From the IMG/VR virus record IMGVR_UViG_2541047913_000006: a stretch of 42,832 nt of DNA; one strand, written 5' to 3'. Below are positions 12,165 through 30,149 of this stretch, in pieces. The DNA is from a virus (Duplodnaviria > Heunggongvirae > Uroviricota > Caudoviricetes). The notes under the pieces are model-generated. The model was not told where the DNA came from. It saw nothing but the letters and a program-made list of their open reading frames with translations, and searched no databases. The stretch's first letter is position 1. The number at the start of each line of letters is the position of its first letter. The position numbers and the translations under genes are program-made.

Positions 12165-12179
12165 GGTAATGACTCCAAC

Positions 12180-12683
12180 TTACTGATAGTGTTTTATGTT
12201 CAGATAATGCCCGATGACCTTGTCATGCAGCTCCACCGATTTTGAGAACGACAGTGACTTCCGTCCCAGCCTTGCCAGATGTTGTCTCAGATTCAGATTA
12301 TGTCGCTCAATGCGCTGAGTGTAACGCTTGCTGATAACGTGCAGCTTTCCCTTCAGGCGTGATTCATACAGCGGCCAGCCATCCGTCATCCATACCACGA
12401 CCTCAAAGGCCGACAGCAGGCTCAGAAGACGCTCCAGTGTGGCCAGAGTGCGTTCACCGAAGACGTGCGCCACAACAGTCCTCCGTATCCTGTCATACGC
12501 GTAAAACAGCCAGCGCTGACGTGATTTAGCACCGACGTAGCCCCACTGTTCGTCCATTTCAGCGCAGACAATCACATCACTGCCCGGTTGTATGCGCGAG
12601 GTTACCGACTGCGGCCTGAGTTTTTTAAGTGACGTAAAACCGTGTTGAGGCCAACGCCCATAATGCGTGCACTGGCGCGACAT
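12180..12683 (-). CDS. insB: IS1 transposase InsB (167 aa)
   Basis: [64 protein letters not shown]... matches IS1 InsB. Confidence 0.9.
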
Positions 12684-12877
12684 CCGACGCCATTCATGGC
12701 CATATCAATGATTTTCTGGTGCGTACCGGGCTGAGAGGCGGTGTAAGTGAACTGTAGTTGCCATGTTTTACGGCAATGAGAGCAGAGATAGCGCTGATGT
12801 CCGGCAGTGCTTTTGCCGTTACGCACCACGCCTTCAGTAGCGGAGCAGGAAGGACATCTGATGGAAATGGAAGCCAC
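12602..12877 (-). CDS. insA: IS1 InsA (91 aa)
   Basis: [68 protein letters not shown]... matches IS1 InsA. Confidence 0.9.
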
Positions 12878-13049
12878 GCAAGCACCTTAAAATCACCATC
12901 ATACACTAAATCAGTAAGTTGGCAGCATTACCCACGCAGACTTTGTGTAAATGTTAACAAATGTGCGTTTTATTTGATCTGATTCGCTGTTTGAGCGTCC
13001 AAAACAACGGTATATATAATCCTTTACTATATGACATATGTGAGGAAAA

Positions 13050-15286: not shown

Positions 15287-15316
15287 TGATCCTACCCACG
15301 TAATATGGACACAGGC

Positions 15317-16183
15317 CTAAGCGAGGTTCTTGTTTTCAAATTGTTCCGGACTGAGGCCGCCACACCAACTGTGCCGCCGCCACCGATTGTAATCACATTC
15401 GATATAATTAAACACCGTTGCCCGCATTATTTCCCGGCTGATAAAGTGTTCTCCATGGATACATTCCACTTTCAGCGAATGAAAGAAGCTTTCCACGCAG
15501 GCATTATCGTAGCAGCAACCTTTTGCGCTCATACTTCCACGCAGATTATGCCGCTTCAGTTGCGCCTGATAATCTGCTGAACAGTACTGGCCTCCACGGT
15601 CCGTGTGAACGATAACGTTCCGGGGCCTCTTACGCCGCCACAGCGCCATCTGCAGGGCATCGCAGGCCAGTTGCGCCGTCATGCGTGGCGACATTGACCA
15701 GCCAATAACGGCACGTGACCACAGGTCAATGACCACTGCCAGATACAGCCAGCCTTCATCTGTACGTAAGTACGTGATGTCTCCTGCCCACTTCTGGTTC
15801 GGGCCACTGGCGTAAAAATCCTGCTCCAACAGATTTTCTGACACAGGCAGGCCGTGTGCGCGGTAGCTGACCGGGCTGAACTTCCGGGAGGCCTTTGCCC
15901 TCAGTCCCTGACGGCGCAGGCTTGCCGCCACGGTTTTTACGTTAAAGGGGTAACCCTGAGCACGCAGTTCATCCGTCAGGCGTGGGGCACCGTAACGCTG
16001 TTTTGACCGGGTAAAAGCCGCGAGGACAACGCTGTCGCAGTGTTGGCGGAACTGCTGACGCGTGCTTATCCTTGTCCGCCGCTGACACCACGTATACCAG
16101 CCGCTGCGGGCCACCCGGAGCACGCGGCACATTGCTTTGATGCTGAACTCAGCCTGATGTTTTTCAATAAAGACATACTTCAT
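15317..16183 (-). CDS. insF: IS3 transposase OrfB (InsF, 288 aa)
   Basis: DDE integrase-type transposase, [32 protein letters not shown]...; matches IS3 InsF. Confidence 0.9.
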
Positions 16184-16479
16184 TTCAGGCGCTTCGCGAA
16201 GTATGTCGCGGCCTTTTGGAGGATAGCCAGCTCTTCATCCCGTTCTGCCAGCTGGCGTTTGAGACGTGCAATCTCGGTAGACATCTCCAGTTCACGTTCA
16301 GAAGACGTCTGCTGATTTTGCTGTTTACTGCGCCAGTTGTAGAGTTGTGATTCATACAGGCTGAGTTCACGGGCTGCGGCAGTAACACCGATGCGTTCAG
16401 CAAGCTTCAGGGCTTCACTGCGAAATTCAGGCGAATGCTGTTTACGGGGTTTTTTACTGGTTGATACTGTTTTTGTCAT
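16180..16479 (-). CDS. insE: IS3 OrfA (InsE, 99 aa)
   Basis: [32 protein letters not shown]...; HTH; overlaps insF as expected for -1 frameshift fusion. Confidence 0.85.
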
Positions 16480-16544
16480 GTGAGTCACCTCTGACTGAGA
16501 GTTTACTCACTTAGCCGCGTGTCCACTATTGCTGGGTAAGATCA

Positions 16545-16710
16545 GTCAGTGCGTGAAGCCACCGCCACCTCCAGCGTGGATAATGCAGTCTCCCCCAGAC
16601 TGGCAGACACCGCTGAACGGGATTATTTCACCCTCCGGGAACGACTGGTAATGATGCAGGCCCAACTTGAAGGTGCTCAGCAATACATAACCGAACAGTG
16701 TTTAAAGTAA
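16545..16710 (+). pseudogene. rzpR: Rz i-spanin, C-terminal fragment (after IS3)
   Basis: After removing IS3 and one GTC copy, the frame continues ...AVCQSVREATATSSVDNAVSPRLADTAERDYFTLRERLVMMQAQLEGAQQYITEQCLK with stop at 16708-16710. Confidence 0.75.
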
Positions 16711-16847
16711 AATCTTAACTACAATATGATTCATTTTGATGATTGTTTCATAAGGAACAGTGAAGTAAGATCTAAGAGGAGTTAAATTTTATACAGTATA
16801 ATCATAATATTGCAGCAAGGTGGTTATAATTGAAAGAATATTTAGAT

Positions 16848-18305
16848 ATGAATACATCTCATGTAAGAGTTGTTACTCATATGTGTGGGTTCCTGGTTTG
16901 GCTCTATAGTCTTTCAATGTTGCCACCAATGGTTGTAGCATTGTTTTATAAAGAAAAAAGCCTGTTCGTTTTCTTTATAACTTTCGTTATATTTTTTTGC
17001 ATTGGTGGCGGAGCGTGGTATACAACTAAGAAATCTGGCATTCAATTACGTACCCGTGATGGGTTTATTATAATTGTAATGTTTTGGATTTTGTTTTCTG
17101 TTATTAGTGCATTCCCTTTATGGTTTGACTCAGAACTTAATTTAACGTTCATTGATGCTCTGTTTGAAGGGGTTTCTGGAATAACAACAACAGGAGCAAC
17201 TGTAATTGATGATGTTAGTTCATTACCTCGGGCATATTTGTACTATCGGTCACAGTTAAATTTTATAGGTGGTTTAGGAGTTATTGTTCTGGCGGTTGCA
17301 GTATTGCCATTATTGGGTATTGGTGGTGCAAAGCTTTATCAGTCAGAAATGCCGGGGCCATTTAAGGATGACAAACTCACTCCCCGCCTGGCCGATACGT
17401 CACGGACACTGTGGATAACTTATTCTTTATTAGGTATTGCTTGTATTGTCTGTTATAGACTTGCAGGAATGCCTTTGTTTGATGCTATTTGTCACGGGAT
17501 TTCCACAGTTTCGCTTGGTGGTTTCTCAACTCATAGCGAGAGTATCGGATATTTTAATAACTATTTGGTTGAGCTGGTGGCTGGTTCTTTTTCCCTGCTA
17601 TCGGCTTTCAACTTCACTCTTTGGTATATTGTTATTAGCAGAAAAACGATAAAACCTTTAATCAGAGATATTGAACTTCGTTTCTTTCTGTTAATAGCCT
17701 TAGGGGTGATCATTGTTACCTCTTTCCAGGTCTGGCATATAGGTATGTATGACTTGCATGGAAGTTTTATTCATTCGTTTTTTCTTGCCAGCTCCATGCT
17801 CACTGATAATGGTTTAGCTACGCAGGATTATGCAAACTGGCCCACGCACACGATAGTGTTTTTGCTGTTGTCAAGTTTCTTTGGGGGATGTATAGGTTCA
17901 ACCTGTGGTGGAATTAAGTCACTTCGATTTCTTATACTTTTCAAACAAAGCAAACACGAGATAAATCAGCTTTCTCATCCCAGAGCGTTGTTGAGTGTAA
18001 ATGTAGGAGGGAAGATAGTTACAGATCGTGTAATGAGGTCTGTATGGAGTTTCTTTTTTCTTTATACTCTCTTCACGGTGTTTTTTATACTGGTGTTAAA
18101 TGGTATGGGATATGATTTTCTTACATCATTTGCAACAGTGGCTGCATGTATTAATAATATGGGATTAGGTTTTGGGGCTACTGCATCGTCATTCGGAGTG
18201 CTTAATGACATTGCAAAATATTTAATGTGCATAGCTATGATTCTTGGTCGCCTTGAAATTTATCCTGTTATTATATTGTTTTCAGGTTTTTTTTGGCGCT
18301 CCTAA
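16848..18305 (+). CDS. trkG: Trk-system potassium uptake protein TrkG (485 aa)
   Basis: MNTSHVRVVTHMCGFLVWLYSLSMLPPMVVALFYKEKSLF...; multi-pass membrane protein; AT-rich gene; matches Rac trkG as I recall it. Confidence 0.9.
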   Translation: MNTSHVRVVTHMCGFLVWLYSLSMLPPMVVALFYKEKSLFVFFITFVIFFCIGGGAWYTTKKSGIQLRTRDGFIIIVMFWILFSVISAFPLWFDSELNLTFIDALFEGVSGITTTGATVIDDVSSLPRAYLYYRSQLNFIGGLGVIVLAVAVLPLLGIGGAKLYQSEMPGPFKDDKLTPRLADTSRTLWITYSLLGIACIVCYRLAGMPLFDAICHGISTVSLGGFSTHSESIGYFNNYLVELVAGSFSLLSAFNFTLWYIVISRKTIKPLIRDIELRFFLLIALGVIIVTSFQVWHIGMYDLHGSFIHSFFLASSMLTDNGLATQDYANWPTHTIVFLLLSSFFGGCIGSTCGGIKSLRFLILFKQSKHEINQLSHPRALLSVNVGGKIVTDRVMRSVWSFFFLYTLFTVFFILVLNGMGYDFLTSFATVAACINNMGLGFGATASSFGVLNDIAKYLMCIAMILGRLEIYPVIILFSGFFWRS

Positions 18306-18442
18306 TATATGGCTGATTTATAATTGTGAGTTTAATATTATGTTGACTCACTCATTGATCCAATACCTAACTTTACCAGCAACACCTCCGCCCCCAGTAG
18401 CACTGGCTGCTGGGGTGCGTTTTATTCATAAAGCAAGGCTGT

Positions 18443-19237
18443 ATGAGCGAGAAATTAAAGATAGTCTATCGCCCATTACAAGAATTGTCACCGTATGCGC
18501 ACAACGCCAGGACGCACAGTACTGAGCAGGTGGCACAACTGGTAGAAAGTATTAAGCAATTCGGCTGGACTAATCCGGTGCTGATTGACGAAAAGGGCGA
18601 AATTATTGCGGGTCACGGTCGTGTTATGGCGGCTGAAATGCTCAAAATGGATTCTGTTCCGGTCATTGTTCTGTCTGGCCTGACGGATGAGCAGAAAAAG
18701 GCGTACCGCCTGGCAGATAATCGCCTGCCGATGAATGCTGGCTGGGATGAAGATCTGTTGCGGATGGAGCTGTCGGACCTAATCAATGCTGATTTTGATG
18801 TCTCCCTGACAGGCTTCATCCCGACAGAAATTGATGAACTGTTGACGGATGTTTTGCCCGGTACAGGAAATGAGGAGGAGCCGTATACGACGAAAATTGA
18901 TACGCCTGTTTATGAGCCGTCGGGCGGTAAACCGGATATCAGTGAACTGTACGACGATACGAAAACTCAGGAGCTGATCAGCCGGATACGTTCGGCGTCC
19001 CTTGATCCTGATATTGAGAAATTCCTCCTGTGTGCGGCAGAACGTCACACAGTGTTTAATTTCAGCAGAATTGCGGACTATTACGCTCATGCCCCCGCTG
19101 AAATTCAGTGCCTTTTCGAGGAGTCGGCGCTGGTGATCATTGATTATCAGCAGGCTATTGAAAATGGATTTGTCCGAATGACGCAGCGCATGGTGGAGAT
19201 CATGCATGGCGGGGAGGAGGAGGAGGAATATGCGTGA
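18443..19237 (+). CDS. ParB-like nuclease domain protein (full-length YnaK-like)
   Basis: 264 aa; ParB/Srx N-terminal domain with GHGR motif (GEIIAGHGRVMAA); acidic C-terminal tail GGEEEEEYA; position after trkG as ynaK in K-12 Rac. Confidence 0.7.
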   Translation: MSEKLKIVYRPLQELSPYAHNARTHSTEQVAQLVESIKQFGWTNPVLIDEKGEIIAGHGRVMAAEMLKMDSVPVIVLSGLTDEQKKAYRLADNRLPMNAGWDEDLLRMELSDLINADFDVSLTGFIPTEIDELLTDVLPGTGNEEEPYTTKIDTPVYEPSGGKPDISELYDDTKTQELISRIRSASLDPDIEKFLLCAAERHTVFNFSRIADYYAHAPAEIQCLFEESALVIIDYQQAIENGFVRMTQRMVEIMHGGEEEEEYA

Positions 19238-20162
19238 TGATTTTTGCGCCTTTATTCTGACTCACGGGCGACCGGACAAAGTTCTGACTTACCGGACGTT
19301 GCGTCGTGCTGGCTATACCGGGAAAATTTTTATCGTTGTTGATGATGAAGATAAGACACGGCATCAGTACATGGCTGAATTTGGTGAACAGGTGCTGGTA
19401 TTTTCCAAAGCCGATATTGCCAGTCGTTTTGACGAAGCCGATAATTTTGGTGATCGCCGCTCAATTTTTTACGCCCGTAATGCCTGTTTCGACCTGGCAA
19501 AACTGGTCGGGTGTAAATACTTCATTCAGCTCGATGATGATTATCACGAGTTCCAGTTTCGGGTGGATCGCAACTATGACCAGGCCTATTTCCCGATAAG
19601 GAAACTGGATGCGATCCTTTCTGAAATGCTGGCGTATTACGAATCAATACCCGCGCTTTCCATCGCTATGTCGCAGGGCGGGGATTTTCTTGGTGACAAT
19701 GGCGGCCATGCTTCGTGGGTGAAACGCAAGGCAATGAACAGCTTTATCTGTTCGGTTGATCGACCGTTCTCATTCATGGGGCGCATTAACGAGGATGTGA
19801 ATACGTACACGAATCTCGGTCGCTGTGGTGAATTGTTTATGACGATCGGTGCTGTCCAGTTAGGGCAGAAACAGACGCAGAAAAACAGCGGCGGAATGAC
19901 CGAGCTGTATCTGGATTCCGGAACCTACGTTAAAAGTTTTTACTCCGTCATGTATTCGCCGTCGTGCGTAAAAATCTCACTGATGGGTGCCAGCCATAAA
20001 CGCATTCACCATCAGGTCACCTGGAACAACGCTGCAGTAAAAATCCTTCACGAAAAATACAGGAAGAAGACACCCTGCATATCAATGGGGGTGACAAATG
20101 ATTCCGTATTCGAAAGTCGAGTCTCTGGCAGCGTGCCGGATGACTGCACAACAAATCGCTGA
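19230..20162 (+). CDS. Hypothetical protein, possible GT-A-like fold (full-length YdaY-like)
   Basis: Start at ATG 19230 with RBS GGAGGAGG, 8-nt overlap with the ParB-like gene; N-terminal FILTHGRPDKVLTYRTL...IFIVVDDEDK and DxD-like motif IQLDDDYHEF; function not established. Confidence 0.5.
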   Translation: MRDDFCAFILTHGRPDKVLTYRTLRRAGYTGKIFIVVDDEDKTRHQYMAEFGEQVLVFSKADIASRFDEADNFGDRRSIFYARNACFDLAKLVGCKYFIQLDDDYHEFQFRVDRNYDQAYFPIRKLDAILSEMLAYYESIPALSIAMSQGGDFLGDNGGHASWVKRKAMNSFICSVDRPFSFMGRINEDVNTYTNLGRCGELFMTIGAVQLGQKQTQKNSGGMTELYLDSGTYVKSFYSVMYSPSCVKISLMGASHKRIHHQVTWNNAAVKILHEKYRKKTPCISMGVTNDSVFESRVSGSVPDDCTTNR

Positions 20163-20349
20163 CGTTCTGGATGTTGATCTGAACCGACTGAAAGAAAATC
20201 GGGAAGCAATGACAGATTTTTATGCGGCCATCCGTAAGGGCAGAGCGAAAGGTGAAGCCGAGTTACGAGCGGCATTGTTTAAGCTTGCCAGAAAAGGGGA
20301 TGCCTTTGCTCTGCGCGAACTACTCAGGGTGGATAAAAATCAGGACTAA
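20098..20349 (+). CDS. Small HTH DNA-binding protein (packaging-associated?)
   Basis: 83 aa; RBS GGGGGTGA 5 nt upstream; MTAQQIADVLDVDLNRLKENREAM helix-turn-helix-like; immediately precedes terminase genes. Confidence 0.45.
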   Translation: MIPYSKVESLAACRMTAQQIADVLDVDLNRLKENREAMTDFYAAIRKGRAKGEAELRAALFKLARKGDAFALRELLRVDKNQD

Positions 20350-20352
20350 CTG

Positions 20353-21447
20353 ATGAGCAGACCGGACTGGGGGGCGTTGCAGCAGGAGTATATTGCTGAA
20401 TACACCCGCTCCGGTATATCTCCGGTGGCATGGTGTGAAGCAAGGGGACTGAACTACGCAACAGCCCGTCGTTACATCAAAAAAACTCCGAAAAATGCGC
20501 AGAAAGAAATGCGCAAAACTGCGCAAAAAAGTGCGCGAAAAAAAACTGCGCAGACTGCGCAAAGGCAGAACGGAAAATCTCAGAAAAAAAAGGCTGTATC
20601 CGATGCACTCCTGATTGAGGGGGACACGGAAGAAATTTCGTTCTGCCCCGATGAATTCGGTATTTCTGACCAGCAGGCAAAATTCGCCATGTTGGTTGCT
20701 CAGGGGAAAAAGCCGACAGAGGCATACCGACTGGCTGGTTATGAGGGGCAAGGTGCGACAGCTAACAGCAACGCCAGCCGTATGCTTAGAAATGCCAGGG
20801 TTTATCGTGCTATCAGCTACTTCCGCAATCAGTACCAGAAACGCTATACCGCAGACCTGGATTTACTGGTGAGCCAGTTGATGGCCATTGTCCAGGCCGA
20901 CCCCAATCAGTTGGCACAATTTCGCCGTGTTAACTGCCGTTATTGCTGGGGCGAGAATCATCTCTACCAGTGGCGTGATATTGCAGAATTCGATAAGGCT
21001 GCGGCACAGGCCTCCAGAGATGGTAAACCCGAGCCGGAATATGGAGGCCTCGGCTTTGTTGATAACGCCATACCCAATCCTGATTGCCCGAAGTGCTGCG
21101 GTGAGGGAACAGGACAGCTTTATATGGCTGATACCACACTGCTTGATGGGGATGCGCGGCAATTATATGCAGGGTCAAAGCTCGGAAAATACGGTGTTGA
21201 GATCCTGCTGGAGGATAAGGCTGCCGCCCGGCGTGAATTGTTGCGTTTGCTTTCTGCTGGCGGGGCATTATGTGCAGATAAGCGGCTACAGGAACTGGAA
21301 ATTGAACGGCGCAGAATAGAGAACCAGAAGCTGCGCAAAGAGATCGAAACGGTGGAGGATAATGAACATCCCCAGCCTGTGGCGATCAATATTAATGTGG
21401 TTGATGCCAGATTAAGGAGTGATGAAGATGATCTCTCCGACGCTTAA
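20353..21447 (+). CDS. Putative terminase small subunit (HTH N-terminus, basic repeat region, zinc-ribbon Cys cluster)
   Basis: 364 aa; position directly upstream of large terminase with overlap; CxxC...CPKCC cluster; internal TGCGCA-rich DNA repeats at 20495-20560. Confidence 0.55.
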   Translation: MSRPDWGALQQEYIAEYTRSGISPVAWCEARGLNYATARRYIKKTPKNAQKEMRKTAQKSARKKTAQTAQRQNGKSQKKKAVSDALLIEGDTEEISFCPDEFGISDQQAKFAMLVAQGKKPTEAYRLAGYEGQGATANSNASRMLRNARVYRAISYFRNQYQKRYTADLDLLVSQLMAIVQADPNQLAQFRRVNCRYCWGENHLYQWRDIAEFDKAAAQASRDGKPEPEYGGLGFVDNAIPNPDCPKCCGEGTGQLYMADTTLLDGDARQLYAGSKLGKYGVEILLEDKAAARRELLRLLSAGGALCADKRLQELEIERRRIENQKLRKEIETVEDNEHPQPVAININVVDARLRSDEDDLSDA

Positions 21448-22729
21448 TGTGCCTCAGGCGCGATTTCTTTCAATGCCCCATAAATTTAAAGCCTATATTG
21501 CTGGTTTTGGCTCGGGCAAAACATGGGTTGGGTGTGGCGGCATATGCAAGGGGATTTGGGAGCATCCAGGTATAAATCAGGGATATTTTGCGCCAACGTA
21601 TCCCCAAATTCGCGATATTTTTTACCCTACAGTGGAAGAAGTTGCTGCTGACTGGGGATTGAACGTAAAAATTAATGAGGGAAATAAAGAGGTTCACTTT
21701 TATTACGGACGCCAGTATCGGGGAACCACTATCTGCAGATCGATGGAGAAGCCACAAACGATCGTCGGTTTCAAAATTGGTAATGCGCTGGTGGATGAAC
21801 TGGACATTTTGCCGAAGGAAAAAGCCAGAACGGCGTGGCGCAAGATAATTGCGCGTATGCGTTATAAGATTGATGGACTTCGCAACGGTATTGACGTTAC
21901 AACCACGCCGGAAGGATTCAAATTTGTCTACGAGCAGTTTGTTAAAGCCGTGCGTGAAAAAACAGAGCTGGCCTCACTGTATGGTCTGGTGCAGGCATCT
22001 ACTTTCGATAATGAAAAGAACCTGCCAGCAGATTACATTCCTTCACTTCTTGAATCATACCCTCCAGAGCTGATTAAAGCCTATCTTCTAGGACGGTTTA
22101 CTAACCTGACAAGTGGTACTGTTTACCATCAGTTTGACCGGAAACTGAATAATTGCGAAGAAGTGGAGCAGCCAGGGGAGCCGATTTATATTGGGATGGA
22201 TTTTAACGTTGGAAAGATGGCGGGAATCGTCCATGTGCTGCGTTTGGGGCTTCCATGTGCGGTAACTGAAATCATCAATGCCTACGATACGCCGGATATG
22301 ATCCGCCTCATTAAAGAACGCTTCTGGCTGTATGACGGGCATGATTACCGGAAAGTGAGGGAGATTTATATTTATCCAGATGCTTCCGGAGATTCCAGAA
22401 AATCAAGTAACGCAAGTACGACGGATATAGCCCAGCTTAAGCAGGCAGGTTTTAACGTTGTGGTGAACAGCTCGAACCCGCCAGTAAAAGATCGCGTTAA
22501 CTCAATGAATGCAATGTTCTGCAATGCCAATGGTGAGCGTCGCTATAAAGTTAATGTGAAGCGTTGTCCGGTATATGCCGAATCTCTGGAGCAACAGGTC
22601 TGGGATGATAAGGGGGAGCCTGATAAAAAATCTGGCAATGATCACCCGAATGATGCCGGAGGTTATTTCATCGTTAAGCAATTCCCTATTGTCAAACCGA
22701 CCGGAAGAGTCACATCACTTCGGATTTAA
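21419..22729 (+). CDS. Terminase large subunit
   Basis: 436 aa; Walker A-like IAGFGSGKTW near N-terminus; C-terminal nuclease-like region; followed by portal. Confidence 0.85.
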   Translation: MMKMISPTLNVPQARFLSMPHKFKAYIAGFGSGKTWVGCGGICKGIWEHPGINQGYFAPTYPQIRDIFYPTVEEVAADWGLNVKINEGNKEVHFYYGRQYRGTTICRSMEKPQTIVGFKIGNALVDELDILPKEKARTAWRKIIARMRYKIDGLRNGIDVTTTPEGFKFVYEQFVKAVREKTELASLYGLVQASTFDNEKNLPADYIPSLLESYPPELIKAYLLGRFTNLTSGTVYHQFDRKLNNCEEVEQPGEPIYIGMDFNVGKMAGIVHVLRLGLPCAVTEIINAYDTPDMIRLIKERFWLYDGHDYRKVREIYIYPDASGDSRKSSNASTTDIAQLKQAGFNVVVNSSNPPVKDRVNSMNAMFCNANGERRYKVNVKRCPVYAESLEQQVWDDKGEPDKKSGNDHPNDAGGYFIVKQFPIVKPTGRVTSLRI

Positions 22730-22731
22730 TT

Positions 22732-24138
22732 ATGGCTGATATATCAACACCCAACCTCGACTATAACGATATGCTGGAGGCGTGGGATATTAACGACGCA
22801 TTGATGGGCGGTACGCTTGAAATGCGCAGGCAGGGGGAAAATTATCTCCCCAAATGGCCTAATGAAGATGAAGACGCTTATAAAAAACGCCTGTCTGTGG
22901 CTACGTTACTTCCTGTGTATGAAGAAAGCATCAAACAAAATATTGGGCGCATATTTGCAGAGCCGACAGTATTGAGTGAGGAAACGCCGGAAAAAATCAG
23001 GGAATATGCAGAAAATATCGACATGGAGGGGAGCCGACTGGATGTGTGGGCGCAGCAATTTTTCAGTCTCGCATTTCAGTATGGTGTGGCACATGCGCTG
23101 GTGGACTATCCACGAACGGATATGAACGAGATTCGGACAAAAGCCGATGAAAACGCGGCCGGTGGTCGCCCGTACGTTACGATGCTGAATCCACGCCAGG
23201 TTATTGGATGGAAATCGAAAGTTGAAAAAGGGAAAGTTGTTCTCACTGATTTGCGTATAAAAGAGGTCATCATTATTGATGGTGATGATTTCGGGCAGAA
23301 GAAGGTGGAGCAGATCCGCCATATTATGCCCCGTCGAGTAGAAATTTATCGACGCAGCGAAGGTACTAATGGCGAATCTGTCTGGATGCTTCATGAGTCA
23401 TGGAATACCAGCCGTGATGATATTCCTCTGGTAACACTGTATACGAAGAAAACAGGGTTTATGCGTGGTACACCGCCATTGCTTAATCTTGGCTTGCTGA
23501 ATATCAAGCACTGGCAAAGCCAGAGCGAGCAGGACAATATTCTTCATGTTGCCCGCGTTCCATTGCTGGTGGCCTACGGGCTGGACAGGAATGAAGAACT
23601 GACGGTTGGTGCATCCACGGCTACGATTTTTGAGGACAGAACAAAAAATGGCCTCGAATATGTTGAACATAGTGGCGCAGCGATAGAATCTGGCGAAACA
23701 TCACTTGAGAAGCTGGAAAATCAGATGCGTCATGCCGGCGCTAAACTTCTGCGGGCTGAAAATACATCCACCAAATCTGTTGATCAGACTAATGAAGAGC
23801 GGATGCAGGAACACTCGCCGCTTTATACAATGGCGAACTCCCTCGAAGATGCCCTCGATAATATTCTCCAGATAATGGCGGAATGGAGCGGAGAGAGTTG
23901 CGGTGGCAATGTGGATGTGCGCACTGAACTGGATGTATCTGCCCAGGTGTTTGACTCATCCTCCGCGCTGGCTGTTCAGTCATTGCGTCAGGGCGGTGAT
24001 ATACGTCAGATTGATGCGGTTCGGGTGTTGCAGGCGTTGAAATTTATCGATCAGGATTCCCGTCCAGAGGATGTGATCGATGAATTAAAAAATCAGAGTG
24101 TAATGTTGATGGAAATCAATGATGCAAACCGTGAATGA
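22732..24138 (+). CDS. Portal protein
   Basis: 468-aa ORF immediately downstream of large terminase; size and position typical of portal. Confidence 0.7.
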   Translation: MADISTPNLDYNDMLEAWDINDALMGGTLEMRRQGENYLPKWPNEDEDAYKKRLSVATLLPVYEESIKQNIGRIFAEPTVLSEETPEKIREYAENIDMEGSRLDVWAQQFFSLAFQYGVAHALVDYPRTDMNEIRTKADENAAGGRPYVTMLNPRQVIGWKSKVEKGKVVLTDLRIKEVIIIDGDDFGQKKVEQIRHIMPRRVEIYRRSEGTNGESVWMLHESWNTSRDDIPLVTLYTKKTGFMRGTPPLLNLGLLNIKHWQSQSEQDNILHVARVPLLVAYGLDRNEELTVGASTATIFEDRTKNGLEYVEHSGAAIESGETSLEKLENQMRHAGAKLLRAENTSTKSVDQTNEERMQEHSPLYTMANSLEDALDNILQIMAEWSGESCGGNVDVRTELDVSAQVFDSSSALAVQSLRQGGDIRQIDAVRVLQALKFIDQDSRPEDVIDELKNQSVMLMEINDANRE

Positions 24139-25234
24139 ACGGCTGCGTGATGAATCAATTGCTCATGCAGTCTGGATATCCCGCTATAGCACTGGTGTGG
24201 CTGCCAGAATGGTGAAAATACTGAATGACAGCGATGCGGAGCTTACAGCTCGCCTGCTGGTAGCACTGGACAGCCTCGATCCTGGTAGTTTTACCGTTAC
24301 GCGCCTAGAGTCACTTCTGGCGAGTGTCAGAGAGGTTAACCGCGCTGCTATTAACAGCATGTTTACCAGTCTCTCCGGAGAGCTGAACGAGCTGGCAATT
24401 TATGAGGCTGGTTATCAGTTAAGTCTGTTTGATTCTCTGCTACCTGATTTTGTTGCTGATGTTCACCCTCTGGTTGGTATATCTTCTGATGCACTTTACG
24501 CCGCTGCAATGGCGCGACCATTCCAGGGACGACTGCTCAGTGAGTGGGCCTTGGATCTTGAGGCGGATCGGCTCAGACGCATAACAAATACGGTGCGTCA
24601 GGGTTTTTTGCTGGGGGATACCAATGAGCAGATCGCAAGAAAAATTCGGGGACATGTCAGCAAGGGATTTCAGGATGGTGCATTGCAGATGAGCCGGGCT
24701 AATGCGGCCAGCATTGCAAAAACAGCGGTTGGACATCTTGCTGCTACTGCCCGTGAGAGTTTTGCCAGCGCGAATAATGATTTGATTAAGGGTAAGCAAT
24801 GGTTATCAACGCTTGATAATCGTACTACGCCACAATGTCGAATCAGGGATCGCCTCAAATATACGCTGGATAATAAACCTGTAGGTCACAGTGTGCCTTA
24901 TTTGCATGGGCCGGGAAAAATTCATTTCTGCTGCCGCTCAACGGAAACGTTCATTCTGAAATCAGCGAAGGAACTGGGTATTGATGTTCGTGATATTTCC
25001 CCGGCTGAGCGGGCCAGCATGGATGGCGTGGTGGCCGGAGATACAACCTACAGGGAATGGTTTTTGCGTCAGCCTTACACCAGACAAAAACAGATTGTGG
25101 GGGAAACCCGGGCAAAGCTGATTCGGGATGGCGGTATGTCGCCAGATGAATTTTACACCGATAAAGGCGAATGGCTGACGCTGAAGCAACTCCGTGAGCG
25201 TGATGCACAGGTATTCAGAAAAGCAGGGATTTAA
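24119..25234 (+). CDS. Head morphogenesis protein (SPP1 gp7 / Mu F-like minor head protein)
   Basis: 371 aa; position after portal; overlaps portal stop by 20 nt. Confidence 0.65.
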   Translation: MMQTVNERLRDESIAHAVWISRYSTGVAARMVKILNDSDAELTARLLVALDSLDPGSFTVTRLESLLASVREVNRAAINSMFTSLSGELNELAIYEAGYQLSLFDSLLPDFVADVHPLVGISSDALYAAAMARPFQGRLLSEWALDLEADRLRRITNTVRQGFLLGDTNEQIARKIRGHVSKGFQDGALQMSRANAASIAKTAVGHLAATARESFASANNDLIKGKQWLSTLDNRTTPQCRIRDRLKYTLDNKPVGHSVPYLHGPGKIHFCCRSTETFILKSAKELGIDVRDISPAERASMDGVVAGDTTYREWFLRQPYTRQKQIVGETRAKLIRDGGMSPDEFYTDKGEWLTLKQLRERDAQVFRKAGI

Positions 25235-25244
25235 ATAAATCATT

Positions 25245-25269
25245 TATTACAACAGGCTACCTTCGGGTG
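25245..25269 (+). terminator. Putative intrinsic terminator after head morphogenesis gene
   Basis: Hairpin GGCTACC-TTCG-GGTGGCC followed by TTTTTT. Confidence 0.4.
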
Positions 25270-25338
25270 GCCTTTTTTATTGCTGCGATCCGGATGGTGA
25301 GCAGCGTAACTGTCGGAAGACTTAAACCAGGTACTAAT

Positions 25339-26103
25339 ATGAAACTGAAAACGGTCGAGATTAACGGAAAACAATACGCAGAAATTGATACTGCTGGCCT
25401 GCCAGTTTATGTGCACGACGATGGTAAAGAAATCGGCTTCGATGCACCGCTGGCGATAAAAAAAATTACAGAGCTTAATGGCGAGGCAAAAAATCATCGC
25501 CTGGCTAAAGAAGCTGCAGAGGAAAAACTGGCTAAGTTTGCCGCTATCGAAGACCCGAAGAAGGCGATCGAGGCACTGGAAATGCTGTCAAAAATCGACC
25601 AGAAAAAGCTGATCGATGCGGGACAGGTTGACCAGGTTAAGGCAGAAATTACGAAAAATTTTCAGCAGCAATTAGATGAAGAAAAGCAACGCTCTCAGAT
25701 GCTGGAGACGCAGCTTTACGATTCTATGATTGGCGGTAGTTTTGCGGGTTCAAAATATATTGCCGATAAAATTGCGATCCCGGCAGATTTATTACAAGCC
25801 CGCTTCGGGCAGGCATTCAAAGTGGAAGAAGGGAAGATCGTTGCTTATGACGCTTCCGGCAACAAAATTTATTCCCGCGCGAAGCCTGGCGAACTGGCGC
25901 AGTTTGATGAGGCGCTGGAGTTCCTCGTCGAAAATTACCCTCAGAAAGACTACATCCTGAAAGCCAGTGGCAACAATGGCGGCGGCTCCCGTCCGACACA
26001 GCATGATGTTGGTCAGAAAACGATGAAACGCTCTGCTTTTGATGCACTGGATGTTGCAGGTAAGCAAAACGCATTGAAAGACGGTATCACAATTGTTGAT
26101 TAA
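25339..26103 (+). CDS. Scaffolding protein
   Basis: Charged, helix-rich (AKEAAEEKLAKFAAIEDPKKAIEALEML), located immediately upstream of major capsid gene; start could alternatively be 25294. Confidence 0.55.
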   Translation: MKLKTVEINGKQYAEIDTAGLPVYVHDDGKEIGFDAPLAIKKITELNGEAKNHRLAKEAAEEKLAKFAAIEDPKKAIEALEMLSKIDQKKLIDAGQVDQVKAEITKNFQQQLDEEKQRSQMLETQLYDSMIGGSFAGSKYIADKIAIPADLLQARFGQAFKVEEGKIVAYDASGNKIYSRAKPGELAQFDEALEFLVENYPQKDYILKASGNNGGGSRPTQHDVGQKTMKRSAFDALDVAGKQNALKDGITIVD

Positions 26104-26201
26104 CACATTTGTCAGCTTCCGGATGGGAGCTGGTGTCAGGGCTGGATAGCTCATTACTCCATCTATTCACAATTACGCAAATTTTTAAGGAATATTTAAT
26201 T

Positions 26202-27341
26202 ATGGCTGGAAATACCCTGACCGGGTTGATCCCGACTATTTATACCGCCCTGGATGTTGTATCCCGTGAGCAGGTAGGTTTTATCCCTGCGGTAGCAAAA
26301 AACGCAAAAGCTGACGCCGCAGCAAAAGATCAGACGGTAACCGCGCCAGTTGCGCCTGAGGCGAAAACCGAAGATATCGTACCGGGGCCGTCAGCTCCGA
26401 ATACCGGTGATCAAAATATTGGCACTGTTGATGTAAAAATTACTAAATCCAAAATGGCACCGGTTAAATGGAATGGTGAAGAACAACTGGCTCTTGGCCC
26501 TTCAGGGACTTACAACACCATTCTGGCTGATCAGTTCAAGCAGGCTTTTCGCGCCCTTGCAAACGAGGTTGAGGCTGATCTTGGTGCGTTGTATTTCGGT
26601 GCTTCCCGCGCCGTGGGAACCGCAGGGACAACGCCGTTTGGTGTTAAAGATGATCTTTCTGATGCTGCTCTGGCTCGTCAGGTTCTGGAGGATAACGGCG
26701 CACCGACAACCGATCTGCAGATGGTGCTTGGCTCCACTGCCATTGCTAATTTGCGCGGAAAACAGTCTGTATTGTTTAAAGTGAATGAATCCGGCACTGA
26801 ACAGCTACTGCGTGAGGGCGTGTTGGGGCGTCTGGAGGGATTCAATATTCACAGTTCGGCAGGTGTGAAACGAGCGCCAAAGGTTGCTGCAACTGGTTAT
26901 CTCGTGAATGGAGAGAAAAAAGAAGGCGATGTTCTTATTTCCATTGATACTGGTTCGGGGAGTATTTCTGCAGGTCAGATTGTTACGTTCGCTGGTGATC
27001 CGAATCAGTATGTTGTGGCAGCAGCGACCAGCAATCTGATTACTCTTGCAGCGCCCGGACTGCGTCAGGATCTGGCCGATGATACTGCCATCACAGTTGT
27101 TGGGGCCTTTACTGCAAATATGGCGTTTGATCGCAACGCGTTTCTGCTGGCATCCCGTACTCCGGCAATGCCGGAAGGTGGCGATAATGCTGATGATGTA
27201 ATGAATGTTACGGACCCGATTTCAGGGATTACGTTCCAGATTGCACTGTATCGTCAGTATCGCCAGGTGCGCTATGAAGTTGGACTGGCATGGGGTGTTT
27301 CATCAGTGAAGCCGGCACATGGTTGTCTGATTCTTGGTTAA
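26202..27341 (+). CDS. Major capsid protein
   Basis: 379 aa from MAGNTLTGLIP (RBS AAGGA); follows scaffold; strong terminator hairpin downstream. Confidence 0.75.
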   Translation: MAGNTLTGLIPTIYTALDVVSREQVGFIPAVAKNAKADAAAKDQTVTAPVAPEAKTEDIVPGPSAPNTGDQNIGTVDVKITKSKMAPVKWNGEEQLALGPSGTYNTILADQFKQAFRALANEVEADLGALYFGASRAVGTAGTTPFGVKDDLSDAALARQVLEDNGAPTTDLQMVLGSTAIANLRGKQSVLFKVNESGTEQLLREGVLGRLEGFNIHSSAGVKRAPKVAATGYLVNGEKKEGDVLISIDTGSGSISAGQIVTFAGDPNQYVVAAATSNLITLAAPGLRQDLADDTAITVVGAFTANMAFDRNAFLLASRTPAMPEGGDNADDVMNVTDPISGITFQIALYRQYRQVRYEVGLAWGVSSVKPAHGCLILG

Positions 27342-27351
27342 ACATTCAAAC

Positions 27352-27371
27352 GGGGCTTCGGCCCCATTTTT
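27352..27371 (+). terminator. Intrinsic terminator after major capsid gene
   Basis: GGGGC-TTCG-GCCCC hairpin followed by ATTTTT. Confidence 0.6.
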
Positions 27372-27383
27372 AATGGGGGGCAT

Positions 27384-27560
27384 ATGGCCGGATTAACTAA
27401 AGAGCAAAGAGCACAGCGTGAAGCCGCACAAAAAACGCAAATTGAGTTAGTGGTTATGGTGACCGATTATCAGATGTTTCCCGGCGCACCAACTATCGCT
27501 AATGTTCATCCTGATGAAGTTGACAACTGGAAGGCTATGGGCTGGAAAACTCAGGAGTAA
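27384..27560 (+). CDS. Small hypothetical protein (58 aa)
   Basis: Not in ORF track; my translation MAGLTKEQRAQREAAQKTQIELVVMVTDYQMFPGAPTIANVHPDEVDNWKAMGWKTQE fills the gap between capsid terminator and next gene. Confidence 0.35.
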   Translation: MAGLTKEQRAQREAAQKTQIELVVMVTDYQMFPGAPTIANVHPDEVDNWKAMGWKTQE

Positions 27561-27563
27561 CAC

Positions 27564-27959
27564 ATGATCACTTACGTGACCTGTGATGACGTTGATAATG
27601 CGTTTGGGAACGCCTGGACGAGTGAGAACGCTAAAAATAAAGCTGTTTTAATGGCTAATGCCTGGCTTAATGGCTTCAACCTGAAAATTAACCCATCCCG
27701 TATTCCTGAAGAGGTAAAACTTGCGGGAGCATATGCAGCCAGAATTGCCTCATTCGGTAAGTTGTTTCAGCAGAAAAATGATTCTGGCGTTGTTATCAGT
27801 AAAGCCGTGTCGGCTGACGGGGTCAGTGTATCGAAATCATTTTCTGAGTTGCCAGCAAACAGCACTGCATTGCTTGAACCCGATTTACAGCTTGCGATAG
27901 CACTGCTGAAACCGTACGGACTTAGTCGCTCACAAGTCAGGGTTGTGAGGGGGGGATAA
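27564..27959 (+). CDS. Head-tail connector / adaptor protein (gp6-like)
   Basis: 131 aa; position after capsid; tightly packed with following genes. Confidence 0.5.
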   Translation: MITYVTCDDVDNAFGNAWTSENAKNKAVLMANAWLNGFNLKINPSRIPEEVKLAGAYAARIASFGKLFQQKNDSGVVISKAVSADGVSVSKSFSELPANSTALLEPDLQLAIALLKPYGLSRSQVRVVRGG

Positions 27960-28342
27960 TGGGGCTTCGTGAAGAGATTCAGTCAGAGGTTGCCGCTGCT
28001 TTTGATGAGGATTTAGCGGACGCCGTGAGTGATTTTTCTGGTTCTTACGTTACGCACCGGCACTGGGATCCTGTGACGGAAACTGGCGGCGAATCCACCG
28101 CAATCTATACCGGGCGAGGCGTGTTGACACGTTATAAGCTGGGCAGAATTGATGGGATTAATATTTTGCATGGTGACCTTAAATTAACCGCTCTGGTATG
28201 CGAGGTTACGGATAAACCAGCTGTCGACCATATTATTGAGATTTATGATCCTGTATCAAGGCAGTTACAACGATACGAGGTAATTACAGCAAGTGTAGAT
28301 CCTTCCGCATCAGTTTACTCTATCCAGTTAAGGAGAGCGTAA
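27959..28342 (+). CDS. Head closure / head-tail joining protein
   Basis: 127 aa; ATGG-overlap coupling with upstream gene; position in head-tail joining block. Confidence 0.45.
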   Translation: MGLREEIQSEVAAAFDEDLADAVSDFSGSYVTHRHWDPVTETGGESTAIYTGRGVLTRYKLGRIDGINILHGDLKLTALVCEVTDKPAVDHIIEIYDPVSRQLQRYEVITASVDPSASVYSIQLRRA

Positions 28343-28723
28343 ATGGCAAAGGCATGGGATATAGAACCGTCAATATTTGCCGGGATGATTGAGGAAAATG
28401 TAGGGCTGAAGATTCGCTACATCGCTATTCAGATTCTTACTGCTATTGATATTGCTGCTCCGGTTGATACCGGACGTTTCAGAAATAACAACCTGGTGTC
28501 GTTACAGCATCCCGATTTTGGTATATCTGATAACGTGGATCCGAACGGTACGATTGCTGTTCAGCGTGGGATCGGGGTTATTTCGAAAGCTGCAAATTAC
28601 GGGGTTATTTATATCCAGAATAACCTTCCTTATGCAGAGGCTCTTGAAAACGGTCATTCACAACAAGCGCCAACTGGCGTGTATGCCAACGCTTTTCATG
28701 GTGTTTTACAGGCTTACAAATGA
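28343..28723 (+). CDS. Tail completion / neck protein
   Basis: 126 aa; position. Confidence 0.4.
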   Translation: MAKAWDIEPSIFAGMIEENVGLKIRYIAIQILTAIDIAAPVDTGRFRNNNLVSLQHPDFGISDNVDPNGTIAVQRGIGVISKAANYGVIYIQNNLPYAEALENGHSQQAPTGVYANAFHGVLQAYK

Positions 28724-29112
28724 AGTTTACTGAAATCAGAAATACGGTTATTTCCAGAATGACGGCACAGACGATTATTGATGGAAAAGACGTATTGTAT
28801 CCGAACGGGCCAACGTTCGATCCTTCCGGTAAGTTAATCTGGGCGCGGTTAAGTAATATTCCCGGGCAGGCTGGAGTTAATGAAATTGGCGCGGGGCCGG
28901 TTGTTTATCGCACGGGGATAATCATTATTCAGTTATTTGTCCCCGCAGGTTCTGGTTCAAAACTCATTACTGAGACAGCCGATAAATTGCGGGAACTGTT
29001 TGAGTTTCAGGATGACGATCGTCTCAGTTACCAGGCTGTTTCCTCAATAGCCGTTGGCGAAAAGAATGGCTGGTTCCAGCTTAATCTTCAAATTCCATAT
29101 CGCGCGCTCTAG
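28720..29112 (+). CDS. Tail terminator / tail completion protein
   Basis: 130 aa; ATGA overlap with upstream gene; precedes major tail protein. Confidence 0.4.
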   Translation: MKFTEIRNTVISRMTAQTIIDGKDVLYPNGPTFDPSGKLIWARLSNIPGQAGVNEIGAGPVVYRTGIIIIQLFVPAGSGSKLITETADKLRELFEFQDDDRLSYQAVSSIAVGEKNGWFQLNLQIPYRAL

Positions 29113-29138
29113 CGCAATTAATGACATAGGAGGCTCCT

Positions 29139-30101: not shown

Positions 30102-30149
30102 TTTTCCGTTATTCCTCCTGTGGTACTGCCCTACAGGGGGACGCATTGA

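Follow-up and report, generated by a model that had tools for sequence, protein, structure and literature searches.

A TAGT-family glycosyltransferase and its coupled partner protein in a Rac-like Escherichia coli prophage: a candidate two-subunit DNA glycosyltransferase

Introduction

The window (the whole 42,832-nucleotide stretch of DNA analysed here) is a Rac-like Escherichia coli prophage. Two of its late genes, ORF A and ORF B, overlap and encode a glycosyltransferase of the TAGT family (ORF B) and the protein that nearly always precedes it (ORF A). ORF A joins a ParB/Srx domain to a previously undescribed second domain, the C-terminal domain (CTD). As the best explanation, held tentatively, we propose that the pair is a two-subunit, ParB-assisted DNA glycosyltransferase that is active late in infection and that uses an acceptor other than the usual phage-made 5hmC or 5hmU. 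An earlier note on this DNA, made from its letters alone, had suspected an intact, poorly characterised module. That suspicion was well founded. Literature searches turned up no paper on the ORF A/ORF B pair, and none on the function of ynaK, the truncated K-12 version of ORF A, beyond a screen.

Organization of the locus

Positions in the window are as follows.

18443..19237, plus strand: ORF A, glycosyltransferase partner protein (264 aa, pI 4.5), with a ParB/Srx N-terminal domain and the novel CTD
18443..18847, plus strand: ORF A ParB/Srx (ParB-CTPase fold) domain, residues 1-135; GHGR P-motif at residues 57-60
18878..18955, plus strand: ORF A conserved linear motif PYTTKIDTPVYEPSGGKPDISELYDD, residues 146-171, predicted disordered
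18956..19192, plus strand: ORF A helical part of the CTD, residues 172-250; motifs AAERHTVFNF, IADYYAH and SALVIID
19208..19237, plus strand: ORF A acidic tail GGEEEEEYA, whose codons are the Shine-Dalgarno run for ORF B, then the ATGCGTGA stop/start overlap
19230..20162, plus strand: ORF B, TAGT-family GT-A glycosyltransferase (310 aa, pI 8.0)
19533..19541, plus strand: ORF B D102-D103-D104, DxD-type metal/nucleotide-sugar motif
19881..20084, plus strand: ORF B conserved C-terminal region, residues 218-285; GGMTELY, GTYVKSFY and HH..W
20085..20162, plus strand: ORF B C-terminal extension (~25 aa), overlapping the next gene by 23 nt
20140-20349, plus strand: small terminase-associated ORF (69 aa; phrog_309; start according to PGAP)
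20353-21447, plus strand: terminase small subunit
21419-22729, plus strand: terminase large subunit

The terminase genes were assigned from PF03592, phrog_51 and the PGAP annotation of identical prophages. The pair had been placed between trkG and the terminase, which is correct, but the phrog_309 ORF intervenes before the terminase small subunit. In GC content the pair resembles the late genes (0.48-0.50) and not trkG (0.38). A promoter scan of positions 16400-20600 yielded six hits, not above the 7.3 expected from shuffled sequence.

Between window positions 18696 and 30260 there is no homology to K-12, which has an 11.56-kb deletion here; ynaK is therefore the first ~85 codons of ORF A, and the glycosyltransferase is absent from K-12. 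The earlier statement that ynaK and ydaY are truncated equivalents of the two genes thus holds for ynaK, a truncated ParB gene, but not for ydaY, which is unrelated: it is what K-12 retains of the tail-region ORF at 30150-30611, and in strain EC93, whose prophage is intact, ydaY sits between the genes for the tail tube and the tape measure. The prophage copy in the window bears IS1 and IS3 lesions.

The codons of the GGEEEEEYA tail form a purine run, GGGGAGGAGGAGGAGGAA (19211-19228), and the ATG of ORF B follows at 19230, with ATGCGTGA (19230-19237) common to both genes. The window therefore has the 8-nt overlap behind a GGAGG-rich run, within the poly-Glu codons, that had been described. ORF B could also be read in frame from an earlier ATG, at 19206 (MAGRRRRNM...), which gives a longer ORF; because all homologues start MR(D/E/N)DF, 19230 is the true start. 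The proposed translational coupling of the two genes is upheld. A stop/start overlap of 4-20 nt is kept in 163 of about 171 loci, and ATGCGTGA itself was seen at the junction in 74 loci.

The TAGT glycosyltransferase

Although the function of ORF B had seemed unassignable by eye, a profile search places the protein in the TAGT glycosyltransferase family (PF20691) with 121.6 bits against a cut-off of 27.5 (E 5.5e-35); the match runs over residues 8-222 and takes in positions 4-205 of the 205-position model. ORF B has the GT-A (nucleotide-diphospho-sugar transferase) fold and the catalytic R...DDD...ED(Y/F) signature; an R...DDD...ED signature has been reported for phage DNA GT-A enzymes (bioRxiv 10.1101/2023.12.21.572611). 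Across 285 sequences, R14 (98%), D102/D103/D104 (98-100%), N187 (96%) and D189 (100%) are conserved, and E188 is invariant in the homologue alignment. The segments FILTHGRPDK, IFIVVDDEDK and QLDDDYHEF had been read as a GT-A-like start and a DxD-like motif, and rightly so: the DDD follows strand 97-102 of the structure model, where GT-A enzymes have theirs.

ORF B is named “GREB1-related protein” at NCBI. No NCBIfam model was found for it, no PADLOC defence model matches it, and the glycosyltransferase profile gave only chance-level matches to solved structures (T4 gp54, E 0.4). The TAGT enzymes of T-even phages were not retrieved with tblastn at E 1e-3, and their relationship to ORF B is thus distant. 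With ORF B alone as the query, 1330 clusters (50% identity) were found at E <= 1e-3 and 497 at E <= 1e-30. Residues 218-285 lie outside the Pfam model and have pLDDT values below 50, and this region includes the 95-100% conserved G222, Y227, P244 and H260/H261. The C-terminal extension occurs only in the E. coli Rac-type glycosyltransferases; other homologues end at ~285-290 aa.

Phage TAGT glycosyltransferases include the 5hmC glycosyltransferases of TET/5mYOX clusters and the beta-glucosyl-HMC-alpha-glucosyltransferase of T2/T6, which share with ORF B the Pfam family, the GT-A fold and the R...DDD...ED signature and, like it, are phage-encoded with tailoring enzymes nearby. What sets the ORF B subfamily apart from these is an obligatory partner domain encoded upstream, together with a C-terminal region of ~65 aa that is conserved but lies outside the Pfam model. 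The base J glucosyltransferase (JGT) and animal GREB1 have distantly related glycosyltransferase domains of the same superfamily and lack a CTD-type partner; JGT depends on JBP-made 5hmU, and GREB1 is a cytoplasmic protein glycosyltransferase of 1949 aa. The T4 alpha- and beta-glucosyltransferases are functional analogues, since they glycosylate DNA after replication in association with the replication machinery (T4 alpha-GT is associated with the replisome); unlike ORF B, they have a GT-B fold, belong to other families and rely on 5hmC incorporated during replication.

Long members of the family carry the glycosyltransferase fused to a SAM methyltransferase, a sulfotransferase, a second glycosyltransferase or a ~185-aa N-terminal domain without assignment; ParB-glycosyltransferase fusions were sought among these proteins and none was found. 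Tailoring enzymes either fused or adjacent to the glycosyltransferase comprise SAM methyltransferase, sulfotransferase, second glycosyltransferase, CofD with a MobA-like transferase, and radical SAM. Such tailoring enzymes are typical of hypermodification clusters.

The partner protein

ORF A belongs to the ParB/Srx group by both HMM match and fold, as the earlier note had recognised: it scores 29.3 bits against PF02195 (cut-off 26.3 bits; E 8.9e-7) and 1.7e-90 against phrog_620. The Box II P-motif arginine (GxxR) is present within AGHGR (residues 56-60), with an invariant G57 and an R60 conserved to at least 90%. The GERR of ParB is GHGR in ORF A, with the CTP-hydrolysis-linked Glu replaced by His and the first Arg by Gly. 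The “nuclease” label that had been attached to ORF A is historical and lacks support, since the protein shows just the generic ParB/Srx fold and matched none of the nuclease families. A canonical partition ParB (ParABS) was also rejected: the Pfam search returned no HTH and no dimerisation-domain match, TIGR00180 scored 38 bits (below its 58-bit cut-off), and no ParA gene was found in the prophage.

The ParB domain of ORF A is nearest to those of ParB-DNA methyltransferase fusions (9e-51 and 1.7e-38; phrog_498 and PADLOC MTase_II). These fusions (PF02195 + PF01555) are enriched in prophages. ORF A matches only positions 13-151 of 436 in the PADLOC model and 31-171 of 633 in the phrog_498 model. 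Among the known defence systems in PADLOC, its sole match is to a methyltransferase model, by way of the ParB portion. Unlike the fusions, ORF A lacks a methyltransferase domain: its ParB domain is followed by the CTD, and the catalytic partner is encoded as a polypeptide of its own. A second comparison, by description, is with the phage thymine dioxygenase 5mYOX176, which on dsDNA requires ParB176, a protein without a DNA-binding domain whose N-terminal nucleotide-binding domain and C-terminal domain are both needed (PMC13229309). As in that system, the gene of a phage ParB homologue that lacks an evident DNA-binding domain stands beside that of an enzyme which, in the case of ORF B, is a candidate for post-replicative DNA modification. 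ORF B differs in being a glycosyltransferase rather than a dioxygenase, and the CTD also occurs without ParB in many phages.

The earlier account of ORF A captured the ParB/Srx part and missed the conserved CTD, the region of the protein with the closest tie to the glycosyltransferase. Among 261 distinct partner sequences, Y148, P155 and Y157 are 97-99% conserved; in the CTD, R201, A211, Y214 and D234 are 100% conserved and E226 99%. The CTD alone had no significant match in Pfam, and its profile matched only designed armadillo repeats among solved structures (PDB), with no single matched stretch significant. Residues 137-169 have pLDDT values below 50 when ORF A is folded alone. Partner residues 146-171 and glycosyltransferase residues 218-285 are both unmodelled when alone, which fits segments that fold on each other.

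Conservation and genomic setting of the pair

The ORF A/ORF B arrangement occurs far beyond chance. An ORF A homologue lies directly upstream of the glycosyltransferase in 88 of 88 close loci, and a partner does so in all 64 distant viral loci with enough upstream DNA and in 71 of 74 species genomes (the remaining three have a partner at most 1.7 kb away). When the search is reversed and begins from the CTD, a TAGT glycosyltransferase is found within 2.6 kb in 80 of 80 loci and directly downstream in 74. Altogether, a CTD protein adjoins this glycosyltransferase subfamily in ~300 loci from more than 12 phyla, archaeal viruses included, and stop and start nearly always overlap. The pair is found in phages of Lactobacillus, Nocardia, Porphyromonas and Vibrio and in a Haloarcula virus. 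In E. coli its prevalence is ~16-30% of complete genomes (867 with at least 80% of the 2.2-kb query; 1619 of 5426 with any match).

Judged from sequence distributions, the CTD rather than the ParB domain is probably the core partner of the glycosyltransferase. A stand-alone CTD protein without the ParB domain is present in 37 of the 80 CTD loci, and distances between glycosyltransferases correlate more strongly with those between CTDs (r 0.94; 0.60 among distant pairs) than with those between ParB domains (0.87; 0.19 among distant pairs), correlations that do not prove contact because neighbouring genes have a common history.

ParB-fused pairs are located directly upstream of Terminase_2/6, Terminase_3, Terminase_4/TerL_ATPase and GpA-type terminases. 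CTD-only pairs lie among genes for DNA_pol_A (18 hits), 3'-5' exonuclease (14), the beta clamp (7), the clamp loader and DnaB. In the virulent 31.8-kb Lactobacillus phage c5, the cos site is immediately followed by the pair; in Nocardia phage NTR1 the large terminase comes next after the pair, and no small subunit is annotated between them; and in HHTV-2 eight genes separate the pair from the terminase.

The acceptor

No genomic association with a 5hmC/5hmU-making enzyme was seen for ORF B in the prophage, the window or the whole c5 genome. The annotations of the Rac-like prophage and of phage c5 (50 ORFs) contain no TET/5mYOX, no thymidylate-synthase-like enzyme and no DNA methylase, and neither TET/5mYOX nor a thymidylate-synthase-like hydroxymethylase was found in the window. 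The locus differs from the TET/5mYOX clusters in that it has no 5mYOX/TET, C5-methylase or thymidylate-synthase-like gene. Enzymes that make 5hmC or 5hmU are likewise not among the 25 commonest families around CTD-only pairs, and only one unassigned ORF of c5 (208 aa) is big enough for a plausible dioxygenase. We know of no glycosyltransferase that modifies canonical DNA bases.

Proposed function and alternatives

In the explanation that we tentatively prefer, ORF A and ORF B would form one translationally coupled, two-subunit enzyme, the physical complex being inferred. ORF B would be the catalytic subunit, a basic, metal-dependent GT-A enzyme of the TAGT family with a nucleotide-sugar donor, and the CTD its obligatory docking or activating subunit. 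The ParB/Srx domain may be an optional add-on that takes the complex to DNA or gates it with nucleotide, much as ParB activators serve phage thymine dioxygenases and ParB domains are fused to phage DNA methyltransferases. The pair would be expressed with the late operon, so that phage DNA could be glycosylated before or during packaging, most plausibly for protection from host nucleases.

DNA as the target, its chemical acceptor and an anti-restriction role are inferred. DNA modification, one of the roles first put forward, is a reasonable candidate. TAGT and ParB were reportedly first described in DNA-modification neighbourhoods by Iyer et al. in 2013. The DNA reading is favored by the characterised TAGT members, which act on DNA (5hmC in TET clusters; the second glucose on T2/T6 DNA), by the precedent of ParB176, the two independent settings of the pair (terminase and replication genes), by a ParB domain closest to methyltransferase-fused ones, by the nearby tailoring enzymes and by the charge of the proteins, with a basic glycosyltransferase (pI about 8.7; 8.0 for ORF B) and an acidic partner (about 4.5). 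Against it stand the strong acidity of a partner with no recognisable DNA-binding domain and the lack of an enzyme that makes a hydroxyl acceptor, either annotated in the Rac-like prophage or c5 or found in the window. A less probable possibility is that the CTD-glycosyltransferase pair carries out hydroxymethyl-independent glycosylation, in which a sugar is placed on canonical DNA (exocyclic amine, backbone or ends) during replication or packaging, or a glycan on the partner's invariant tyrosine rides on or with DNA.

The main rival, which we consider rather unlikely, is protein glycosylation. The glycosyltransferase would O-glycosylate its partner (e.g., at the invariant Tyr148/Thr149 of the disordered motif) or the terminase, portal or capsid, and ParB would merely put the glycoprotein on DNA. 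Glycogenin-type GT-A enzymes self-glycosylate on Tyr, and the Y-[TS]...P-x-Y motif of the partner, 97-99% conserved and predicted disordered, is what would be expected of a substrate or docking peptide; a docking peptide explains it equally well. That no enzyme making a DNA acceptor is present also suits a protein target, and the glycan-tailoring fusions are compatible with any glycoconjugate. The TAGT-domain protein GREB1 O-GlcNAcylates a protein (PMC7968844), a relationship that counts against DNA, but the nearest characterised phage relatives of ORF B modify DNA. A protein target also sits poorly with a ParB domain of the DNA methyltransferase-fused type and with CTD-only pairs in replication rather than structural modules.

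The terminase-proximal position of the pair, directly upstream of terminase genes in phages of five phyla, right after cos in c5 and directly before the large terminase in NTR1, would suit a packaging accessory, in which the ParB-like protein serves the terminase by marking or organising phage DNA (as a pac- or cos-proximal loader) and the glycosyltransferase is secondary. This role is improbable: nearly half of the CTD-first sample lacks ParB and lies beside DNA polymerase instead of terminase, the HHTV-2 pair is eight genes away, and the terminases come from different families, which leaves no conserved specific protein partner. DNA methylases often occupy the same pre-terminase slot.

Still less probably, the glycosyltransferase would act on hydroxymethylated or glycosylated DNA made elsewhere, by a competing phage (superinfection interference) or by an unrecognised enzyme of the same genome. 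All characterised phage TAGT enzymes have 5hmC or a sugar on 5hmC as their acceptor, and the survey of phage glycosyltransferases floats anti-phage hypermodification by prophage glycosyltransferases. The pair, however, also occurs in an archaeal virus and in virulent phages (c5, for example), lies in a late operon that is silent in lysogens, and has in c5 only the 208-aa ORF as a plausible unassigned dioxygenase. Lysogenic conversion of the cell envelope (like TarP or Gtr), or an unrelated “moron” glycosyltransferase beside a ParB-type partition or nuclease gene, is very improbable, and seroconversion and partition were rejected, given the absence of other membrane or flippase genes, of ParA and of an HTH domain, the late-gene rather than trkG-like GC content, and a pairing and coupling kept in ~300 loci that include lytic phages and archaeal viruses.

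Implications for phage glycosyltransferases

In a survey of phage glycosyltransferases, ~65% of the contigs that bear one lacked a neighbouring DNA-preparing enzyme, and their role was left open (bioRxiv 10.1101/2023.12.21.572611). The CTD-glycosyltransferase pair represents a large, coherent part of this group, and it is made tractable by its diagnostic partner domain, its DNA-machinery context and its presence in a substantial share of complete E. coli genomes. Should DNA be the target, the pair would make a sugar modification without 5hmC or 5hmU, with a bearing on restriction evasion, type IV restriction, and the sequencing and cloning of phage DNA, and would widen the newly shown partnership of ParB-fold proteins with DNA-modifying enzymes. 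If the target is protein, the pair would be a widespread phage counterpart to GREB1-type glycosylation. Were the hydroxymethyl-independent reading true, more than 12 prokaryotic phyla would harbor an undescribed phage nucleic-acid or nucleoprotein modification that is testable in E. coli.

The genes and their junction

The partner and the glycosyltransferase (GT) encoded by ORF A and ORF B form a conserved unit, and the constant partner of the GT is the C-terminal domain (CTD) of ORF A, not its ParB domain. The two genes lie as follows:

18443-19237: ORF A, GT partner protein, 264 aa
19230 (ATG) to 20162 (end): ORF B, GT, 310 aa

The genes overlap by 8 nt, sharing ATGCGTGA. The run GGGGAGGAGGAGGAGGAA (19211-19228), formed by codons of the ORF A end GGEEEEEYA, holds several GGAGG boxes 3-9 nt 5' of the ORF B ATG. 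Both the overlap and the use of the poly-Glu codons as a ribosome-binding site, proposed in the earlier note, are borne out, and the peptides it read by eye (GHGR, FILTHGRPDK, IFIVVDDEDK and QLDDDYHEF) all occur in window proteins. A longer in-frame ORF B is possible from the ATG at 19206; because every homologue begins MR(D/E/N)DF, the start is placed at 19230. Stop and start overlap by 4, 8, 11, 14, 17 or 20 nt in 163 of ~171 loci, and 74 loci show precisely the ATGCGTGA junction. At its C-terminus the E. coli Rac-type GT is extended by ~25 aa (20085-20162) that are missing from homologues; the extension overlaps by 23 nt a 69-aa ORF (20140-20349) matching part of the terminase small-subunit family phrog_309. 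A similar 85-aa ORF directly follows the GT in Pantoea prophages (L006).

ORF B, the glycosyltransferase

ORF B encodes a glycosyltransferase. It matches the TET-associated glycosyltransferase family (TAGT, PF20691; E 5.5e-35, 121.6 bits against a cut-off of 27.5 bits) and phrog_842 (E 1.4e-103), and the identical protein appears as "GREB1-related protein" in recent PGAP annotations. Residues 1-217 of the AlphaFold2 model are mostly confident, and the top matches in a viral structure library are TAGT-domain phage proteins (E 1e-21). D102-D103-D104 follow strand 97-102 and, with R14, D41, D68, R83 and D189, are 98-100% conserved among 285 distinct sequences, forming the R...DDD...ED signature known from phage DNA GT-A enzymes. 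The earlier note had left room for a structural or packaging protein, or for a non-catalytic DxD-like motif; given the TAGT match and the place of the motif within a conserved catalytic signature, ORF B is neither structural nor packaging and its motif belongs to the catalytic signature. Some family members carry a fused class I SAM methyltransferase domain, Sulfotransfer_2, another TAGT domain or an unknown N-terminal domain of ~185 aa (P0128, P0131, P0165, P0167, P0147, P0148, P0151, P0187 and P0196).

ORF A, the partner

The ParB-type domain recognized in the earlier note stands, but nothing was found to support the label "nuclease". Its nearest sequence matches are the ParB domains of phage DNA methyltransferase fusions (phrog_498, 9e-51; PADLOC MTase_II, 1.7e-38). 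The GERR box of Spo0J reads GHGR in ORF A, keeping the P-motif Arg and replacing with His the Glu linked to CTP hydrolysis (residue roles from PMC13229309). No helix-turn-helix domain was found in ORF A, and no ParA in the prophage.

The CTD (residues 146-250) comprises a linear motif, Y-[TS]-x-K-I-x-x-P-x-Y-E-P-x-G, in the disordered stretch of the model, followed by helices with AAERH, IADYYAH and SALVIID. Partner residues Y148, Y157, R201, Y214, E226 and D234 are 98-100% conserved among 261 distinct sequences, and the domain has no significant match in Pfam or the PDB. The GT also carries a conserved tail (218-285), beyond the Pfam model and unmodelled in isolation; this tail and the partner motif may fold against one another. 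The GT has a basic pI (median 8.7), the two domains of its partner an acidic one (4.5-4.7).

Pairing and distribution

The gene immediately before the GT encodes the partner in all 88 close loci, in all 64 viral loci with enough upstream DNA (GT identity 41-47%) and in 71 of 74 loci from one-genome-per-species contigs, the other three having it within 1.7 kb. The species-genome loci span Enterobacterales, Bacteroidota, Bacillota, Verrucomicrobiota, Kiritimatiellota, Acidobacteriota, Ignavibacteriota, Spirochaetota, Saccharibacteria, relatives of Chlorobi and SAR11, Methanosphaera and an uncultured archaeon; cultured viruses with the pair include Lactobacillus phages c5 and phi jlb1, Nocardia phage NTR1, a Porphyromonas gingivalis phage and Haloarcula virus HHTV-2. 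The "ParB nuclease" ORF of Lactobacillus phage Ld25A (KJ564036.1 366-500) matches only GT residues 235-279, which suggests a decayed module in which a deletion fused partner to GT tail. Near-identical E. coli-type ParB or GT records under a nematode (Cooperia oncophora), Bacillus sp. and a "Borreliella garinii" MAG (P0376, P0377, L265) most likely reflect contamination or mis-binning in public data.

Searching outward from the CTD, a TAGT gene occurs within 2.6 kb in 80 of 80 loci, directly downstream in 74; 37 of the 80 have a partner of 120-155 aa that lacks a ParB domain. Vibrio phage pv27 (191 kb) has such a CTD-only partner just 5' of its GT. One viral contig (L127 6409-8849) has two CTD-only/GT units in tandem, the first GT being far more divergent than the second. 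Across 102 non-redundant pairs, GT distances correlate with CTD distances (r 0.94; 0.60 among distant pairs) and less closely with ParB-domain distances (0.87; 0.19 among distant pairs), values that are supportive of GT-CTD contact and no proof of it, because linked genes have common ancestry.

Both protein families are already known, and earlier work has placed ParB proteins and GTs in DNA-modification neighbourhoods of phages (for ParB, PMC13229309). In the literature compared, which did not extend to Iyer et al. 2013, no description was found of the partner domain, of its one-to-one pairing with this GT subfamily, whether or not ParB is present, or of the pair's consistent lack of a hydroxymethyl-pyrimidine pathway.

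The prophage and its K-12 relative

A Rac-like lambdoid E. coli prophage makes up the window, its genes running intR, recET, immunity and replication functions, lysis genes, trkG, ORF A, ORF B, a small ORF, terminase small and large subunits, portal, head, tail and stfR. It is 99.7-100% identical to the intact prophage of E. coli strain EC93 across aligned segments, and differs by IS elements in two regions (12166-12930 and 15287-16541). IS1 stands in place of 4.5 kb, a loss that includes the remainder of an Sll1717/STAND-like P-loop ATPase and the DUF1367, DUF1364 and DUF1133 genes; an IS3-family element sits within the Rz/lysis region. Late expression or lysis is probably impaired in this copy, whose ParB-GT pair is intact. 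The trkG/ORF A gap contains a strong terminator-like hairpin (18392-18415, + strand; 10 pairs, 7 G-C, then TGCGTTTTAT) that transcription of the late operon would need to pass. The GC content of trkG (38%, against 48-50% in adjoining genes) is as expected for a moron.

Homology to K-12 Rac reaches 18696 and restarts at 30260, marking an 11.56-kb deletion (18697-30259; locus L174) that takes out two thirds of ORF A and the whole of ORF B, along with terminase, portal, head and proximal tail, including the tail tube genes. At its junction, codon ~85 of the ParB gene (ynaK) runs into the middle of ydaY, a tail-region gene. Of the two K-12 genes named in the earlier note as truncated equivalents, ynaK (87 aa) is indeed the ORF A stump, but ydaY is a remnant of ORF 30150-30611, which in the intact prophage is flanked by the tail tube and tape measure genes. 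PGAP treats the intact 264-aa ParB gene inconsistently, as at L001 20244-20501 (window 18443-18700): in some genomes a complete, 100% identical ORF A is labelled a partial pseudogene "ynaK, missing C-terminus", probably from use of the K-12 stump as naming reference.

Acceptor and proposed function

Characterized TAGT enzymes require a hydroxyl, on 5hmC (TET clusters), on the glucose of 5hmC (T2/T6) or on Ser/Thr (GREB1). No TET/5mYOX, thymidylate-synthase-like enzyme or DNA methylase was found in the Rac-like prophage, none is annotated in phage c5, whose whole genome has 31.8 kb and 50 ORFs, and the 25 commonest neighbour families around CTD-only pairs include no acceptor-making family. Transfer of the sugar to the partner's invariant Tyr/Thr motif or to another phage protein is rather unlikely, and action on foreign or cryptically made hydroxymethyl DNA very improbable.

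A packaging function for the ParB protein would accord with the position of ParB-fused pairs immediately 5' of terminase genes, which belong to four or more unrelated Pfam types, and of the c5 pair directly 3' of the cos site; it is nonetheless improbable. CTD-only pairs are located in replication modules, where the most frequent families in 148 neighbouring ORFs are DNA_pol_A (18), the associated 3'-5' exonuclease (14), sliding clamp (7), clamp loader (4) and DnaB (4), then recombinases, N6/N4 methylase (3), CofD (3) and MobA-like transferase (3). Envelope conversion, or adjacency by chance, is the least credible explanation.

Elaborate modules (L187, L188 and L190, at about 2.4-7.7 kb) run GT, CTD, CofD-like phosphotransferase (with HAD), MobA-like nucleotidyltransferase and second GT, and one version (L183 4372-5361) has a radical SAM enzyme between CTD and GT. 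They suggest phospho-linked or further tailored glycans; the glycan-tailoring activities fused to or near members of this GT family resemble those of DNA hypermodification clusters.

The likeliest reading, though at a little under even odds, is that the pair is a two-subunit enzyme that acts on phage DNA late in infection. Translational coupling would deliver the subunits in a fixed ratio; the basic GT would be catalytic and probably contact nucleic acid, with the CTD docking on or activating it. The optional ParB domain would bring the complex to DNA or gate it with nucleotide. ParB-dependent thymine dioxygenases, whose ParB lacks a DNA-binding domain and is needed on dsDNA (PMC13229309), offer a parallel to this arrangement, and ParB-methyltransferase fusions (PMC12704722) a further one.
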